A stretch of DNA of 64,000 nt from a virus, in IMG/VR virus record IMGVR_UViG_3300009130_000010, positions 38,930 to 102,929 of that record, one strand, 5' to 3'. The position numbers and the translations under genes were made by a program. Position 1 is the first letter of the stretch. Every line of letters begins with the position of its first letter. Under the pieces are notes generated by a model. That model had not been told where the DNA came from and ran no database searches. It saw nothing but the letters and a program-made list of their open reading frames with translations. Below are positions 4,393-12,928 of this stretch, piece by piece.

Positions 4393-4611
4393 TTGGCGTT
4401 AAGCAATGAAGAGATTGTTAAATTATTAGACGAATTTGACAAGCAGACAAAAGCCCTAGAAAAAGAACTCTTAGAAATAACCTGGTATATGAGGGGTGGG
4501 ATATCCTATTCTGAAGCTACTGGTTTATCTTCTAGTGAGAGAAGACATATTAACGAAATCATTAAACAAAATATTAAAAACGTTAACGAAACGAAACTTC
4601 CCCTATTATAA
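4393..4611 (+). CDS. T4 gp51-like hub assembly protein; probably the C-terminal extension of a frameshift product
   Basis: WYMRGGISYSEA...ERR motif, immediately after gp26-like; only a TTG start with no good SD. Confidence 0.6.
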   Translation: MALSNEEIVKLLDEFDKQTKALEKELLEITWYMRGGISYSEATGLSSSERRHINEIIKQNIKNVNETKLPLL

Positions 4612-4626
4612 CAAAAACGTTCATCG

Positions 4627-4634
4627 AATAAATA
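4627..4634 (+). promoter_or_regulatory. Late promoter AATAAATA
   Basis: TAAATA core 25 nt upstream of ATG 4659, which has SD GAGGAG. Confidence 0.5.
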
Positions 4635-4658
4635 CTACTGAGTGAGGAGTATTATTAC

Positions 4659-5609
4659 ATGAACTTTCTAAAACTAGTTTTGGCCACTTGTATAGTGGCA
4701 ATGTTGTCTATGTCTGCTTTAGCGGATACGTCAAGTACTGGCGCCACTACAAACACACAAACAGCAACAACAGGATCTAACACTACTATATCAGGTGGTT
4801 ATTCAGCTGAATCAACTACTACATATCAAGATGGTTCAACTAATGATACCACAAGTACTACTAATAATACTACTAACAATAACAACAATACTAAAGTTCC
4901 AGTACCTACAGCGAGTGCTCCAAGCATGAGTGCTTACTCCCAAGATATATGTGCTGTTGGAAAATCAGGTGGAATACAAGCACCTGGATTTGGTATATCA
5001 GGTGGTACTACAACACGTGATATGAACTGTGAACGTATGAAGCTTTCTAAACTGTTGAACGATTACGGTATGAAAGTCGCGGCTGTGGCAATACTTTGTC
5101 AAGATCCAAGAGTGTTTGAAGCTATGGAACAAGCAGGAACACCATGTCCGTTTGAAGGTAGAATTGGTTCTGCGGCAATGGAGCAATGGAAAAAGTATGA
5201 CATTGAAAGACCTGATTACGAAAAATATGTTGAAAAAATGGACGAACGTTTAGAAATAGATGAACGTATTATGAAAGAAGAAGGCGTACTTGAAGAAAAC
5301 GAAACATTAAAAACAGACGTTAAAACTATTAGTAAAGAAAACAAACAGTTACAAAAAGATATTGAAGAATTAAAGAAAATGCAAGAAGAATTAATTAAAG
5401 CTCAAAAGGAAGAAGTTAAACGTCTTACAGCTTTAGTTCCTGAGGTTCATGAAGATGAAGAAGTTCCTGTTGAGGAGGAAATTATACTTCCTAAACCTAA
5501 ACCAAATAACATATTTGTTGAAGAAGTAATTATTGAAGATCTTCCACCAATAGAAGATCCAGAAGACATAACATCAAACCCGTTTGAAATTAAAAATATG
5601 GGTAGGTAA
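4659..5609 (+). CDS. Secreted hypothetical protein (signal peptide, T/N-rich linker, 4-Cys domain, coiled coil, acidic tail)
   Basis: N-terminal MNFLKLVLATCIVAMLSMSALA signal peptide; SAPSMSAYSQDIC...NCER...ILCQD...GTPCP domain; strong SD. Confidence 0.75.
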   Translation: MNFLKLVLATCIVAMLSMSALADTSSTGATTNTQTATTGSNTTISGGYSAESTTTYQDGSTNDTTSTTNNTTNNNNNTKVPVPTASAPSMSAYSQDICAVGKSGGIQAPGFGISGGTTTRDMNCERMKLSKLLNDYGMKVAAVAILCQDPRVFEAMEQAGTPCPFEGRIGSAAMEQWKKYDIERPDYEKYVEKMDERLEIDERIMKEEGVLEENETLKTDVKTISKENKQLQKDIEELKKMQEELIKAQKEEVKRLTALVPEVHEDEEVPVEEEIILPKPKPNNIFVEEVIIEDLPPIEDPEDITSNPFEIKNMGR

Positions 5610-7372: not shown

Positions 7373-7823
7373 ACTTACAACCTACGCATCATTGATTGGA
7401 GTCATCGGTGCCATTGGAGGAGGCTTTTACGCTTGGGGTGAATTCAACACTCGTTTAACAGCTATTGAAAATAAACAATTTGTAGTAAACGAAACTGTTG
7501 ATCTTACACCAACAAATGATAGAATTTCAGCATTGGAAGTAGATCTAATCGATCGAATAAATGCTTTGAAAGAACAAGTAGAGTCAGGTCAAGAAATTGA
7601 TCTTACTGAAATATCAGAAACTATTGTAGAACTAAACCGTTCATTAACAGCAAAAATAAACGAATCTAGCGATAGTATTAAATCTGATTTAAATGCTATG
7701 AAAGAAACATTAACAGAAGTTGATAAAAAAGTTGCTATAGCATTAAAAGAGAATGAGTTACAAGACGAAAAAATAGAATCAAATAGACTTAAAGCAACAA
7801 ACCCGTTAGCTAACTCAAACTAA
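7356..7823 (+). CDS. Membrane-anchored coiled-coil hypothetical protein
   Basis: N-terminal hydrophobic helix LIGVIGAIGGGFYAW followed by heptads; overlaps the upstream gene; SD GGAGGT. Confidence 0.7.
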   Translation: MSLINKLTTYASLIGVIGAIGGGFYAWGEFNTRLTAIENKQFVVNETVDLTPTNDRISALEVDLIDRINALKEQVESGQEIDLTEISETIVELNRSLTAKINESSDSIKSDLNAMKETLTEVDKKVAIALKENELQDEKIESNRLKATNPLANSN

Positions 7824-7881
7824 ATTCCATTATTTAATGGCCGTACACCAAATAACATACTTTAATGTTTAGTACAGTCAT

Positions 7882-7888
7882 CTAAATA
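7882..7888 (+). promoter_or_regulatory. Late promoter CTAAATA
   Basis: 7 nt before ATG 7896; no SD. Confidence 0.5.
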
Positions 7889-7895
7889 ATAACCT

Positions 7896-8084
7896 ATGTA
7901 CACAAGATACAACGTGGTTAACAAGCAAACCAAAGATATTTATTGTACGGTTTTTTCGTTAGAAGAAGCCCAGCAAGTTATTGACATGGAAAAAATAAAC
8001 CATCCTCATTGGGAATTAATCGTAGAAAAAATAGAAGTAAGTCCGGTTAAAAATGGTTTTGGCCGTGATCCTGATTTACATTAA
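7896..8084 (+). CDS. Small hypothetical protein (62 aa)
   Basis: ORF with its own late promoter; ends GFGRDPDLH. Confidence 0.6.
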   Translation: MYTRYNVVNKQTKDIYCTVFSLEEAQQVIDMEKINHPHWELIVEKIEVSPVKNGFGRDPDLH

Positions 8085-8139
8085 GAGCTCTTGAGCGACC
8101 AGTCAGAGTTTCCTGAAACATTAATATACTAGTAGAACT

Positions 8140-8588
8140 TTAACAATATCAGCTTCGCTGATATGTTTTTTCGCTTTCGCTCAAAACACTTATTTGTTAT
8201 AACGAAATTTATTTCGTTTATCATTCAGATATTTTGCCCATACTTCACCCGCTAGGGGCAAAGTATAAGGTAGTTCATCATTCGAGTAACTCACCCATAA
8301 CGTCTAAGAAGATTTAGTATTACTACTAACGGAGGCGGAAACCCGCTAACCCCCTACTTCAGCTTCACATAAGTTTCGGAACATTTATTCACCCAGAACG
8401 TCGAATGTTTAAATGTTGAAGTTGTATCTTTTTCACAGAGCTTCATCTTTTAGCCTTTAAGTATAATGGCCTTCACTTGCTACAACCCAGATCTGAGTAC
8501 AGGTGTCTGTACCCTCAAGGGTATGTTTGTGAGGTAGCTATATAGTTGTTAATGTTTGCCTGAATGTTGCTGTTAATAGTATGTTATC
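8140..8588 (-). ncRNA. Candidate large structured non-coding RNA (alternatively an origin-like DNA element)
   Basis: ~500 bp with no ORF of 60 aa or more in an otherwise gene-dense genome; at least 8 hairpins; GNRA loops (GUAA, GAAA) and G-U wobbles that work only on the minus strand. Confidence 0.55.
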
Positions 8589-9101
8589 TTAGGCACACAA
8601 TGTTTTAACCAAATCTGAATTTCTTGTGAAAAATTCCTCAAAATTTGATATGCGCCAGTTAGAGCCTGTAGTGTTAGACCAGTAGTCTATATAGTTTTTT
8701 GATTTTGAATTGTGCCTAGTTTCTATGGCTATGAATTTGCCTACTTGATTGAATTTCATTATTAATATATTAAAGTCGTCTGGTACTGCTACATCCATTA
8801 GTTGAGATATCCACTCTTCTAACATTGGAATCGGTTCAGGTTGTAATAGTCTGTGAAACGGAAATGCTTTATAAAATTTACATTCCGCATTTAGTTTAGG
8901 AAAACTTTGTCCAGGGACAATGTCTCCTTTGAAGGCTCTTACTTGACCTTCGTGAAGTATTTCCATTCTAGCTTTATTAGACCCGCCCACATAAGCACCG
9001 GAACCAGGAGCTCTTATAAAACTTTCATTGTATAGTCCGGACAAGAATCTTGCGACATCTCGCTCCCAACCTGATCCTTTTGCTTTTTGTGGGCTTGGCA
9101 T
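8589..9101 (-). CDS. Holliday junction resolvase (Hjc-like PD-(D/E)xK nuclease)
   Basis: KAKGSGWERDVA, PGSGA, GDIV, AECK motifs. Confidence 0.8.
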   Translation of the reverse strand: MPSPQKAKGSGWERDVARFLSGLYNESFIRAPGSGAYVGGSNKARMEILHEGQVRAFKGDIVPGQSFPKLNAECKFYKAFPFHRLLQPEPIPMLEEWISQLMDVAVPDDFNILIMKFNQVGKFIAIETRHNSKSKNYIDYWSNTTGSNWRISNFEEFFTRNSDLVKTLCA

Positions 9102-9396: not shown

Positions 9397-9987
9397 CTAT
9401 TTCTTCGTTTTCTCCCAAACTACCATGTTATGATACTTTTTTTCACCTTCTGGTGTGGTTATACTATGTACTTTTTCAATACTAACAACTTTTAAATCAG
9501 TCTGTTTTTCCCAACCACCTTCTGTTATCCAATCTTTTGGAGTTATACACATACTACAATATAGTAACCCGTCGTCAGTTAAACTATCAGCTATATGCTT
9601 TGAAGCACTAGCATCAACGTGTCCAAATGTTAGTACGCCAATTGCTGTTAAGCATTTATATTTTTGTGGTAATGGTGCTTTAGTTATATCGTGTATCTTA
9701 GTAGTTCTATAATTACCTGCCACAAATCTATTAAGCATAGGTTGATTTAAATCGTAACCATCAATTAAGTATTTGTGATTTATTAATCCAAGTCCTACTT
9801 GACCGTTTCCACAACCAATGTCTCCTACTTCTGTTCCTTCTAGAAAATTATCTATAATCCAATTAGAAGCAATAGTATGACATACCCATCCTCGTTCATT
9901 TATAACTTCGTCATGATAGTTATCCCAACCATCATACAATTCGCTATTACTTTTTTTATAAATTTCGTCTAACCAATAATCAGTCAT
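9397..9987 (-). CDS. Class I SAM-dependent methyltransferase
   Basis: VGDIGCGNGQVG motif I; IDGYDLNQPML; GVLTFGHV. Confidence 0.85.
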   Translation of the reverse strand: MTDYWLDEIYKKSNSELYDGWDNYHDEVINERGWVCHTIASNWIIDNFLEGTEVGDIGCGNGQVGLGLINHKYLIDGYDLNQPMLNRFVAGNYRTTKIHDITKAPLPQKYKCLTAIGVLTFGHVDASASKHIADSLTDDGLLYCSMCITPKDWITEGGWEKQTDLKVVSIEKVHSITTPEGEKKYHNMVVWEKTKK

Positions 9988-10669
9988 AATATTTTACCAT
10001 GTCATTTAGGTTTTCTCTAGCTGTTCGATATTTGTTAATTATGTTTTTAGTATCTTCGTATCCAATACTCATACCACACAATACAATTTTTTCTTTATAC
10101 TCAGGTAATTCTTGTCTTACTATATCAGCATACTCTCCTAATGACCCCTGTGGACAGGTTGCCAGGCCATGTTCAACAGCTGACAACATAATCGACTGTA
10201 TAAACATACCATAGTCTACATAAGAACCTTTGCCTAATGCTCTGTCAATAAAAAATAATAACATAACAGGAGCATCAAACCCTCTATAATTTTTAGCATA
10301 TAACAAATTTTTACGTTCTGTCATTTCTCTAGTAATACCTAGTTGATTATATAAAGCTAATCCACATTCTTTTCTTCGTTGCTTATACTCTCCAAACCAT
10401 TCAGCATCTTTTTCACTAAACTTATCAAATGGATAATACTCGTAATCCATAACAGGTGTTATACCAGAACTAAATGCTTCTTCTAATTTGTTACATAAAT
10501 TATTTTTTGACGTACCTGTAAGTACAGCTACTTGCCAAGGTTGATGATTATCACCACTTGGTGCTTGTTTGGCTTGCTCTAATATTTTGTTTATAGTATC
10601 AATAGAAACTTCTTTATTTAAAAAAGCTCTTGTTGACTTACGAGTTGCTAAAGCATCACTAACTATCAT
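9980..10669 (-). CDS. Nitroreductase family flavoprotein
   Basis: RKSTRAF, APSGDNHQPW, GLATCPQG, GMSIGY. Confidence 0.9.
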   Translation of the reverse strand: MIVSDALATRKSTRAFLNKEVSIDTINKILEQAKQAPSGDNHQPWQVAVLTGTSKNNLCNKLEEAFSSGITPVMDYEYYPFDKFSEKDAEWFGEYKQRRKECGLALYNQLGITREMTERKNLLYAKNYRGFDAPVMLLFFIDRALGKGSYVDYGMFIQSIMLSAVEHGLATCPQGSLGEYADIVRQELPEYKEKIVLCGMSIGYEDTKNIINKYRTARENLNDMVKYYD

Positions 10670-12081
10670 ACTTCTGAATAATCCTTTACATTAACCTTAG
10701 AAATAATATGAGGAGGAAAACTATTTTTAACAATGGCAGGCAATTTACTTCTTTGAAATTTATTTGGACCAGAAAAATATAAATGTTCAGTTACATGATA
10801 TATATCGTGTGGTCGTTTAGCCTTTTGAGCATTATCAGTAAAGTGTTTAGCTACATCATTAGCATTAGCTGTTCCTGTATATATTAAGTAATGAAGTTCA
10901 TCTTGTTCGCAACTAGCAACATTTTCAACACCAGGAACTTCGAGTGCCAATGCTTCTACTAATCCTGTATAAATTTTTATACCACTTTTCATAAAGATAA
11001 CATCATCAAACACTCTACCAGAATAATACCATGTACCATTTTCATCTCTAAACTTATCACCATCTGTTTGCCAATCTAGTGTTCCGTACTTGTACCAAAG
11101 TACGCCTTCTTTGTCAAGTTTTAACTCCCCGTTATAAAGATGTTTTGTAAATCCATAAAAGTTTTTTATTGGATCACCTGGTCTATAAACAGCAACTGAA
11201 TGGCAATCTGCTTCTGTACTTGCCATCATATTGTAAATTGCTTTAAACTTAAATTTCTTTATAATACTTTTGAGAACTACTTCTGGTGTATGTCCTCCAG
11301 AACATTCCCAGTAATCTATAGGCCAATTGAAATCATCAGGACATTCATCAACTATCTTTTTAATAGCATTAGGATATGATATACAACAATTAGGTTTTGC
11401 TTTTACTATCTCCCCAGGTATATTATCTCCCCAATTTAAAAAATGTATACTACCACCTATTAAGTATATTCTTAACAAGTTATAAGGATTATAAGTAGCA
11501 GTAAATCCTGCTGTACAAAGAATTCTTGGTCGTTTATCTTTTGTAAATTCAGGTGCTATAGCAAATAAATGATTAGTAGATGCCTGTGCTGTACATCCTA
11601 ATAATGTCTGCCCATCTACAATAGCTTCTTCATGATCTTCGTAATCCCAAAAGAAAGGATACATTTCAAAAAACTCTTTAACTGTAGTTCCGCTTGTCAT
11701 ACCTCTATATATTTCTTTAGGATGTAATATAGTAGGTCCTGTTTCAGCTGGATCACTTAACATTGTTATTTTATTAGAACGTATAATACAAGTTGCTTTA
11801 CAACCTTTAATCAATCCTTCACGCTCCATCTTAGATTGTCTAGCGTCAGCCTGTGTAGCTGATCCACCGTTTTTAATACTAGCAAGTATCCATAAGTAAT
11901 CATCTATTGTAACTTGATCTTCTGCTATTACAAAAACAACGTGTGGTCCTATACCATGCTCTTTAAGTCTTTTAATTTTAGCATCTAAATTATCGTGTAA
12001 CTCTCCCCAAGTAATTTGTTCAGTAGAATTACTTAAAAAAATATCATCTTCACTGAGAGGTCCTTGTGTTTGTTTTAACAT
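10666..12081 (-). CDS. Divergent adenylate-forming (ANL / AMP-binding) ligase
   Basis: MTSGTT (A3), YNMMASTE (A5), WQTDGD (A7), GRVFDDVIFMKSGIKIY (A8), PNKFQR (A10 Lys). Confidence 0.7.
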   Translation of the reverse strand: MLKQTQGPLSEDDIFLSNSTEQITWGELHDNLDAKIKRLKEHGIGPHVVFVIAEDQVTIDDYLWILASIKNGGSATQADARQSKMEREGLIKGCKATCIIRSNKITMLSDPAETGPTILHPKEIYRGMTSGTTVKEFFEMYPFFWDYEDHEEAIVDGQTLLGCTAQASTNHLFAIAPEFTKDKRPRILCTAGFTATYNPYNLLRIYLIGGSIHFLNWGDNIPGEIVKAKPNCCISYPNAIKKIVDECPDDFNWPIDYWECSGGHTPEVVLKSIIKKFKFKAIYNMMASTEADCHSVAVYRPGDPIKNFYGFTKHLYNGELKLDKEGVLWYKYGTLDWQTDGDKFRDENGTWYYSGRVFDDVIFMKSGIKIYTGLVEALALEVPGVENVASCEQDELHYLIYTGTANANDVAKHFTDNAQKAKRPHDIYHVTEHLYFSGPNKFQRSKLPAIVKNSFPPHIISKVNVKDYSEV

Positions 12082-12082
12082 A

Positions 12083-12895
12083 TTATTCCTTAAAAATATT
12101 TGTGTAATCTAATGCTACACGCCAAAGTTCTCTACTTTTGTTTACAACAGGTGAACGTCTGTGTATAGTATACAATTGATCCATTAATAATAAATCACCT
12201 TTTTTAAATACAAAATGTTTTTGATAAATTGATCTGTCTAATGTTTTTTTATATTTTTCTTTTACAATATCTACGTTTACTGGCTCACCGTTTTGCCATG
12301 CTTTTTCTAACAATGGTGGTTGCCAATATAAAAACTCTTGCCCATCTACAGGATGTTTATTTACTGCTGGCATACAGTCATCACCGTCGTGATGAATTGG
12401 CATAACGTAATCATCTAAACTTGTATCAACATTTGATTCTTCTTTTGACCCATATATACCATAACTACTAAAATTGTTTAACTGTATATCAATAGAACGC
12501 CAATAGTCTTTTTCTTTTTCAGGTAACTCATTAAAAGCATCTCTATTGTTTAATAAACTAAAAACAGTATCAGGACATTCTCCTACACAATATAAAGCAA
12601 TTAGTATTTCTTTAAACTCACCTAAATGATGTATTGTGCCATTGGCGTGCCATTGTAGTTCTGTTTCTCCAAACAATCCACCTGGCATTACTCTTGCTAT
12701 GTCTGGATTTTCTTTTGGGTTATAATGAAATTGTCCCATTGTATCGTCGTCTGTATTTCCTATACGTCTACAATAGTCAACTAGTTGAGGTTGTGTTAAA
12801 TTTTGTTCATGATGAAATGTATATCCATCTTTTAATACTTGTTGAATTTCTGATTTTAATTCTGAATCTGTATATTCTAATACTTGTACAGTCAT
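12083..12895 (-). CDS. TauD/TfdA-family Fe(II)/2-oxoglutarate dioxygenase
   Basis: ELQWHANG, ALYC, HPVDG, GDLLLMDQLYTIHRR, RELWR; start moved to ATG 12895 (SD AGGGG). Confidence 0.8.
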   Translation of the reverse strand: MTVQVLEYTDSELKSEIQQVLKDGYTFHHEQNLTQPQLVDYCRRIGNTDDDTMGQFHYNPKENPDIARVMPGGLFGETELQWHANGTIHHLGEFKEILIALYCVGECPDTVFSLLNNRDAFNELPEKEKDYWRSIDIQLNNFSSYGIYGSKEESNVDTSLDDYVMPIHHDGDDCMPAVNKHPVDGQEFLYWQPPLLEKAWQNGEPVNVDIVKEKYKKTLDRSIYQKHFVFKKGDLLLMDQLYTIHRRSPVVNKSRELWRVALDYTNIFKE

Positions 12896-12928
12896 TGATA
12901 ACACCCTTTACTATGCTTTAATTACTTA

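Follow-up and report, generated by a model that had tools for sequence, protein, structure and literature searches.

A covarying RNA with two identical boxes in a widespread family from uncultured aquatic T4-like phages

The minus strand of the viral DNA analysed in this study encodes, from about position 8540 to 8140, a structured non-coding RNA of about 400 nucleotides, which belongs to a widespread family. The entire feature covers positions 8140-8545, with a 5' end near 8540 and a 3' end just past a terminal hairpin near 8140. The analysed stretch, referred to here as the window, comprises 64 kb of a virus record in IMG/VR that is 102,929 bases long and has an estimated completeness of 25%. 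The family is common in uncultured marine and freshwater phages of the T4 superfamily, a placement derived from Pfam matches on relatives, which include gp46/gp47-like genes and T4 baseplate genes, and DNA nearly identical to the window is found in marine and seawater metagenomes, where 14 DNA runs from 9 studies each contain roughly half of the sampled words or more. The window RNA has all parts of the family core: a G-rich hairpin whose loop engages in a pseudoknot, two identical boxes of seven nucleotides flanking a second hairpin, and a module combining G.A pairs with a GNRA-type loop. We assign a probability of about one half to the reading that it acts in trans as an independent RNA and presents two equal sites for recognition by a bivalent reader.

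The RNA is located in a gap of 504 nucleotides (8085-8588), the sole stretch of at least 200 nucleotides in the window that is devoid of an open reading frame of 45 or more residues on both strands, and the claim of the first-pass annotation that there is one long stretch of this kind thus holds at this cut-off. The gap is enclosed by convergent genes, a 62-residue reading frame on the plus strand (7896-8084) and, as the upstream neighbour of the RNA, a gene on the minus strand (8589-9101) for a nuclease of 170 residues, which belongs to the PDDEXK_15 family (PF24608, E = 6e-20; PHROG 244), carries a RusA-like annotation and is in turn preceded on the same strand by a 59-residue Hc1-like gene. 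We regard this nuclease as genomic context and not as a shown member of an RNA system. The 62-residue reading frame has no Pfam or PHROG family, but is 56-89% identical in the relatives L002, L004 and L006 and is a genuine small gene. Across the family, the RNA is found where the gp47/gp46 cluster ends, with gp47/gp46-like and auxiliary genes located upstream beyond the nuclease, and it faces mostly convergent genes downstream, among them those of the baseplate hub.

The comparison of related loci relied on 80 phage contigs that were retrieved with the nuclease protein as query. Five close relatives share the gap with an identity of 78-86% in BLAST and 81-87% in global alignments, which about equals the conservation of the neighbouring coding sequences, and a more distant version of the same gap is found in L033. 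In the six close sequences, RNAalifold predicts 88 base pairs and detects compensatory changes in 23. From the core of the RNA (window 8165-8459, minus strand) we have built a covariance model of 295 positions and 64 pairs, termed R1, which matches the window at 332.6 bits and was run on contigs selected by a near-invariant G-rich signature. An initial search pattern for this signature, GGGGN{2,5}CGGN{3,6}CCGCCTCYG, was too loose, as among the matches listed 44 of 80 were chance occurrences in GC-rich contigs. The model recovered at least 36 full or near-full homologs in the first collection and at least 78 in all, which are contained in IMG/VR phage contigs and score between 25 and 333 bits. 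All matches fall on one strand, in agreement with the strand indicated by the G-U pairs, and the RNA is single-copy in the records that carry it. A second model of the 5' domain (R2, 169 positions) matches the window at 8397-8549 with 104 bits.

Covariation among related loci had been named in the first-pass annotation as a check on the presence of a structured RNA, and it is observed: in 35 distinct sequences, 86.8% of the cells show standard pairing, compared to 36-44% (about 41%) if the partners are slid by one to three columns, 37 of the 64 pairs of R1 change on both sides, and none of 500 shuffles reaches any of the pairing or covariation measures. The folding energy deviates only modestly from that of shuffled sequences, with z-scores of -2.8 for the minus and -2.4 for the plus strand, and it is thus the covariation and not the density of hairpins that carries the case. 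There is no conserved reading frame in 41 homologs, whose longest frames extend over 32-79 residues on differing strands and at different places. Together, these properties bear out the initial proposal of a structured RNA of about 450 nucleotides on the minus strand, including its coordinates, with a length that we now place at 400-450 nucleotides.

Evidence for expression is confined to a weak hint. A single metatranscriptome library contains a contig of 250 nucleotides, which covers positions 8269-8518 with two mismatches at low depth, and since such contigs provide neither strand nor ends and since DNA might have been carried over, its weight is small. In three of the four metatranscriptome runs compared, coverage is limited to genes for the resolvase and Hc1 from related strains. 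No contig in any of the four bridges gene and RNA, the uncovered parts being uninformative.

Following the RNA in the 5' to 3' direction, the nuclease stop codon is separated from the first helix by a leader (8546-8588) that is A/C-rich and apparently unstructured, as described initially: in a MAFFT alignment of the six close relatives its length varies and no conserved pairing is detected. The leader harbours repeat units of the type AACAGCA / CUUUUAAC, one in the window and about three in L002 (4514-4568) and L005 (4514-4574) with none in L004 and L006, and these A/C-rich units are a small expanding repeat or a slippage-prone spacer. The ensuing 5' domain (8479-8538) is closed by an outer helix between GCUAC (8538-8534) and GUAGC (8483-8479), which encloses a short helix (8522-8519 with 8488-8485) and a hairpin at 8514-8495, the latter containing the helix proposed earlier at 8497-8512, for which compensatory changes were found. 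RNAalifold detects such changes in the domain with 6 and with 26 sequences, and 17 of the 20 predicted pairs covary. The outer helix, which appears as GCAAC/GUUGC, CCAGC/GCUGG or GUAAC/GUUAC in relatives, was read by eye, as it was missed in an alignment of the 5' regions by MAFFT only.

The core begins with a long-range helix between 8453-8445 and 8313-8304, which closes a central multi-helix junction and is 74-79% paired, with changes on both sides in six of its nine pairs. The first hairpin within this junction (8418-8444) consists of an outer stem GAAG/CUUC and an inner stem UGUG/UACA, which are paired in 100% and 92% of cases and surround a conserved A-rich loop; six of its eight pairs covary, including every pair of the fully paired helix that had been assigned to 8417-8445 at the outset. 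Further towards the 3' end resides the family signature, a near-invariant hairpin of the form GGGG..GCGG-GUUU-CCGC-CUCC (8331-8353), which served as the search pattern. In the 35 sequences, five of its eight pairs never vary and its outer stem shows no unpaired cell. The helix at 8335-8346 that was recognised beforehand is thus genuine but invariant, and it is its loop that provides the covariation by forming a pseudoknot between GUUU (8342-8339) and an upstream AAAC (8376-8373). This interaction, first exposed by mutual information, is paired in 86.3% of cases compared to 16-51% in slid controls, all four pairs change on both sides, and its covariation score of 0.795 exceeds the 0.24 observed in shuffles, none of which reached so high a value in 500 trials. 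A competing helix of the original R1 model (8374-8373 with 8357-8356) was dropped, being paired in 72% of cases against 86% for the pseudoknot. The hairpin UUAGUA-GUAA-UACUAA at 8314-8329 was seen in folds and lies outside R1; the helix listed there in the first-pass annotation has counterparts in relatives, which contain a hairpin at the same place with other stems, such as GUAGGAAACUAC, GUUGGAAACAAC and GUCGAAAGAC.

The 3' half of the core contains the two boxes, both of which read GAAUGAU in the window. Box 1 (8277-8283) follows a conserved ACUC and box 2 (8220-8226) a conserved AUCU, and between them extends a hairpin (8237-8270) with a stem of 10 base pairs (8265-8256 with 8250-8241) and three closing pairs. 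The stem is paired in 95.7% of cases and seven pairs change on both sides; for the helix previously delineated at 8240-8266, five pairs covary and the G-U pairs fit the minus strand only. Its suggested alternative partner GGGCAAA (8233-8239) is not conserved, since it is replaced by GGAUAAA in L002 and faces an altered strand in L006. Similarly restricted is the hairpin CGAAAU..AUUUCG at 8201-8218, which stood up in the close clade of the window, where it is found in L002, L004 and, in a weaker form, in L005, but not beyond, as it is absent even in L006 and variable in the family.

Towards the 3' end, a module with the sequence U-GA-GC-GAAA-GC-GA-A is embedded in a covarying helix (8167-8186), which places tandem G.A pairs beside a GNRA-type loop. 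Its two helices, contained in the element first outlined at 8164-8188, both covary (six of six pairs) with 91% and 97% pairing, and the underlying motif GAGCGNNAGCGA is conserved across homologs. The RNA ends in a hairpin (8146-8164), whose early assignment is sustained by compensatory changes in the clade and by a hairpin of 7-8 base pairs that directly follows the G.A/GNRA module in nearly all homologs. On the plus strand, six T follow the same hairpin (8146-8170), and an intrinsic terminator of the 62-residue gene is predicted here. Since these T residues are complementary to the A-rich 3' strand in the G.A/GNRA module, one sequence serves both strands, which is the case in the clade of the window only.

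The most distinctive property of the family concerns the relationship between its two boxes, which form direct repeats about 51-58 nucleotides apart on either side of a hairpin of 13 base pairs. Box 1 equals box 2 in all 66 homologs where both were located, compared to an average of 15 and never more than 28 agreements under shuffling, and this identity persists in spite of a variation between RNAs that amounts to eight variants in the first six letters and 12 as heptamers, the words including AGAUGAU, AGAUAAU, GGAUAAU, GGAUGAU, ACAUGAU, GAAUGAU, GCAUGAU and AGAUCAA. The constraint between the boxes is thus one of identity and not of complementarity. No consistent complement of seven nucleotides, with G-U pairs allowed, is found in the RNA or within 170 nucleotides upstream and 80 nucleotides downstream, so that a conformational switch operated by an internal anti-box is not sustained; a CAUUCAG in the leader can pair with box 2 in the window but is absent in relatives. 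Within the 64-kb window there is no excess of the box or of its complement, and in 562 kb of flanking DNA the own box and its complement are not enriched (56 and 38 occurrences) relative to the other variants (70 and 40). The lack of a complementary strand in the RNA, the window or these flanks points to a reader outside.

Several known elements with related sequences do not account for the boxes. A box C/D or k-turn motif is suggested by CUGA and UGAUGA in the boxes of the window but not in those of most homologs, a hammerhead-like UGAUGAGCG..CGAA is at odds with flanking strands that pair with each other and contains a UGAUGA that is not conserved, and a CsrA site based on GGA would fit the GG variants only. 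For box 2, a small hairpin UAUC/GAUA can be proposed, which is 81% paired with little covariation, and the boxes may in this case not be fully single-stranded.

The reading that we favour, that of an independent and stable RNA acting in trans, would account for these features in the following manner. The RNA is probably cut from, or constitutes the end of, an early or middle transcript that proceeds from gp47 and gp46 via auxiliary genes to the nuclease, and its twin boxes would serve as unpaired read-out sites, which stay identical if a single bivalent reader must recognise both. The simplest putative reader would be a homodimeric RNA-binding protein, analogous to the CsrA dimer gripping two sites of CsrB, although a nucleic acid with two equal sites could take its place, and in either case the specificity of the reader would be expected to differ between phage lineages. 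The identity of the boxes could equally originate from pairing to a nucleic acid in trans that is located outside the DNA examined. In sponge RNAs of the CsrB/RsmZ type, a homodimeric RNA-binding protein grips two of several identical short sites at once. The resemblance to the RNA described here lies in the repeated identical short sites and extends to the mechanism by analogy only, since the GGA needed by CsrA is present in only about a quarter of the boxes, since there are two sites instead of many, and since these sit within a large rigid fold. A further-reaching version, in which the boxes constitute a programmable address on a rigid scaffold that shows a lineage-specific word of seven nucleotides twice to a dimeric or two-site target of host or phage, we consider doubtful. 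If true, it would define a new class of phage RNA effector, be it a decoy, a sponge or a bivalent guide, whose specificity would be readable and could be re-set from the sequence of the box.

Rare as they are, large and highly structured RNAs with no known job have repeatedly led to new biochemistry such as ribozymes, riboswitches and RNA-only cages. The RNA described here is abundant in uncultured giant T4-like phages of marine and freshwater environments and is conserved like their proteins, and the presence of two sites that are held identical instead of complementary is an unusual evolutionary signal, which offers a testable handle on the partner. For annotation, the RNA accounts for a recurrent 'empty' gap of 400-500 nucleotides behind small nuclease genes in such phages.

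The location of the RNA raises the question of whether it belongs to the upstream nuclease, as cofactor, guide or regulator within a single cassette. We consider such a relationship improbable, despite the fact that a nuclease gene of some kind precedes the RNA directly and on the same strand in 61 of 70 assessable loci (87%), its end being located about 100-120 nucleotides before the start of R1, and despite the lineage-specific variation of the boxes, which would be expected of a programmable element. The position is occupied by two unrelated folds, GIY-YIG in 50 and PD-(D/E)XK in 11 loci, and by unrelated genes in the remaining nine, which include reading frames of 275-356 residues, some of them without a Pfam match. 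The GIY-YIG proteins are of the SegE family with about 142 residues (PF19835, E = 1e-32), and with 140-180 residues the nucleases of both folds amount to bare catalytic domains. Moreover, most PDDEXK_15 homologs are found without the RNA nearby or anywhere in large records, and the flanks contain no target-like complement of the boxes. The specific tie to the resolvase that had been proposed in the first-pass annotation is therefore not upheld: among the 80 loci retrieved by way of the resolvase, no more than 8 contain the RNA, which is also absent from 16 large resolvase-bearing phage records, including one complete genome of 367 kb, and the upstream gene is not of the PD-(D/E)XK type in 59 of 70 loci. 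The same applies to a tie with Hc1, which adjoins the RNA only in the clade of the window and in L033.

With two nuclease folds and unrelated genes upstream, and with resolvase-bearing phages lacking the RNA, the nuclease looks like a neighbour and not like a partner or cofactor, a label that may underrate the strong association found in 61 of 70 loci. Free-standing homing endonucleases of the seg type in T4 sit beside genes of stable RNAs, as exemplified by segB in the tRNA cluster. By analogy, the upstream nucleases, which are mostly SegE-like GIY-YIG proteins, may be homing-type genes that settled beside a highly conserved sequence, without serving the RNA as cofactors. The likeness is that, in a T4-like genome, a SegE-family GIY-YIG gene adjoins the gene for a conserved RNA, whereas the neighbour in the window is of the PD-(D/E)XK type and carries a resolvase annotation. 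HEARO and the omega-RNAs of IscB and TnpB likewise come to mind, being structured, a few hundred nucleotides long and located next to a nuclease gene. However, the neighbours found here are bare GIY-YIG or PD-(D/E)XK domains of 140-180 residues, which are interchangeable and sometimes absent, HEARO has no Rfam match in the window, and the obligate linkage to one nuclease family by which omega-RNAs are recognised is not observed, given the split of 50, 11 and 9 loci and the 16 resolvase records without RNA.

Equally unlikely in our judgement is a role exclusively in cis, where a structured 3' untranslated region would protect or terminate the upstream early or middle transcript, or insulate it from a convergent late operon, without any function in trans. 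The RNA invariably follows a co-oriented gene, whose stop codon is located about 80-145 nucleotides before the start of R1 and close to the first helix, it ends in a hairpin, a convergent gene faces it in most loci and no promoter of its own is seen between stop codon and first helix, all of which would be expected of such an element. But a terminator or a block to exonucleases would hardly need about 400 nucleotides with a pseudoknot, near-invariant stretches of 25 nucleotides and identical boxes, and the RNA is kept while the upstream gene is swapped.

It also appears quite improbable that the RNA is of the self-assembling 'ornate' type, forming an RNA-only homo-oligomer whose subunit contacts would involve the boxes. 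GOLLD, ROOL and OLE form homo-oligomers as determined by cryo-EM (PMC12286853). With these RNAs, ours shares its size, pseudoknotted complexity, carriage by phages, which is frequent for GOLLD and ROOL, and orphan status, all being large, intricately folded and non-coding with a job that is unknown or poorly known. In contrast, subunit contacts require complementary or palindromic sites whereas the boxes are identical non-palindromic words, there is no match to GOLLD, ROOL or OLE in Rfam or otherwise in sequence and structure, and the RNA described here is smaller (about 400 nucleotides), resides in T4-like lytic phages and contains twin identical boxes.

A transcript acting at a replication origin, as R-loop or primer bordering the gene cluster for recombination and replication, with boxes as iteron-like sites in DNA or RNA, is a very remote prospect: the RNA is located downstream of gp46/gp47 and contains direct repeats, but selection clearly acts on RNA pairing and on one strand, many related large phages do not have it, and the GC skew shows no switch centred at its position. 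Finally, chance hairpins or a decayed gene, which the modest energy scores of similar magnitude on both strands might suggest, are refuted by the covariation, the pseudoknot, the breadth of the family and a conservation equal to that of coding neighbours.

The RNA is without a public description that we could find and is not catalogued in Rfam 15. The designation as undescribed thus holds for Rfam 15 and the searchable literature, which does not extend to the more than 10,000 candidate RNAs of phages catalogued in 2023. An Rfam scan had been named beforehand as a check of novelty, and no family of Rfam 15 matched at gathering thresholds in the whole window or at E <= 10 over 7800-8900, nor at E <= 1 in five homolog loci except for a chance match to a miRNA elsewhere. 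ARAGORN finds no tRNA or tmRNA gene in the window, in line with the initial impression by eye that the RNA resembles neither. A blastn search with the window region and a consensus-like homolog against 50,697 GenBank phage records gave no match and thus no cultured carrier. Among 185,579 species represented by one genome each, the real carriers are three contigs (of 80 pattern matches) in two metagenome-assembled genomes (MAGs) assigned to Legionellales and Haliscomenobacter, which are probably binned phage contigs.

A relationship to a catalogued motif emerges from the comparison with Polynucleobacter-1 (RF01718), first described by Weinberg et al. in 2010 (PMC2864571), beyond which we have found no mention of it in the open literature. 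Using its model of 141 positions with a threshold of 37 bits, no match was detected at E <= 10 in the 102,929-base record of the window. In 36 other records, four of which were searched at E <= 10 and 32 at E <= 1, real matches are found in three, which are the record of L079, one MAG contig and, below the threshold, a second locus in the 302-kb phage record G016; a match of 11 bits in the record of L141 is far from the RNA there and looks like chance. In L079, a distant relative, the motif (4536-4678, 103 bits) ends nine nucleotides before a twin-box core (4687-4946) that matches R1 weakly but over its full length, and it thus occupies the place of the 5' domain of the window. As a search with R2 at E <= 1 gives no match in L079/L282, L283 and L284, the loci that bear RF01718, the 5' domains appear to be interchangeable modules. 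The window RNA is not a member of Polynucleobacter-1 but is related to RNAs that contain this motif. The two have in common that they are orphans found in freshwater or estuarine sequence, and RF01718, with 141 nucleotides, makes up no more than a third of an RNA of this kind. An orphan Rfam motif can thus serve as one exchangeable 5' module within an RNA of far greater size.

The other two of the real matches deserve mention. On contig 184 of the Haliscomenobacter MAG, L283 (1501-1635, minus strand) matches RF01718 at 92 bits, and no twin-box core could be detected behind it. Full twin-box RNAs are present in the same MAG on two contigs of 148 and 183 kb, which are probably binned phage genomes. 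L284 (1501-1902) is the second locus of the 302-kb phage record holding L122, where a match to RF01718 of 35.5 bits is followed 87 nucleotides on by one to R1 of 13 bits. This locus may be a diverged second copy of the twin-box RNA, a normal version of which is found elsewhere in the record.

The surroundings of the RNA show additional recurrent features. The auxiliary enzymes encoded between gp46 and the pair of nuclease and RNA differ by phage, with a radical SAM protein and a short-chain dehydrogenase in L103 (4735-6476, minus strand) and a methyltransferase, a nitroreductase and others in the same interval of the window (9397-12928), and this interval resembles a cargo-gene hot spot. On the other side, a DUF6614 protein of 111-113 residues is a recurrent product of the convergent gene just past the RNA, as found in L095, L097, L098, L124 and L100 (5692-6033, minus strand), where the assignment rests on a match to PF20319 with E = 9e-22.
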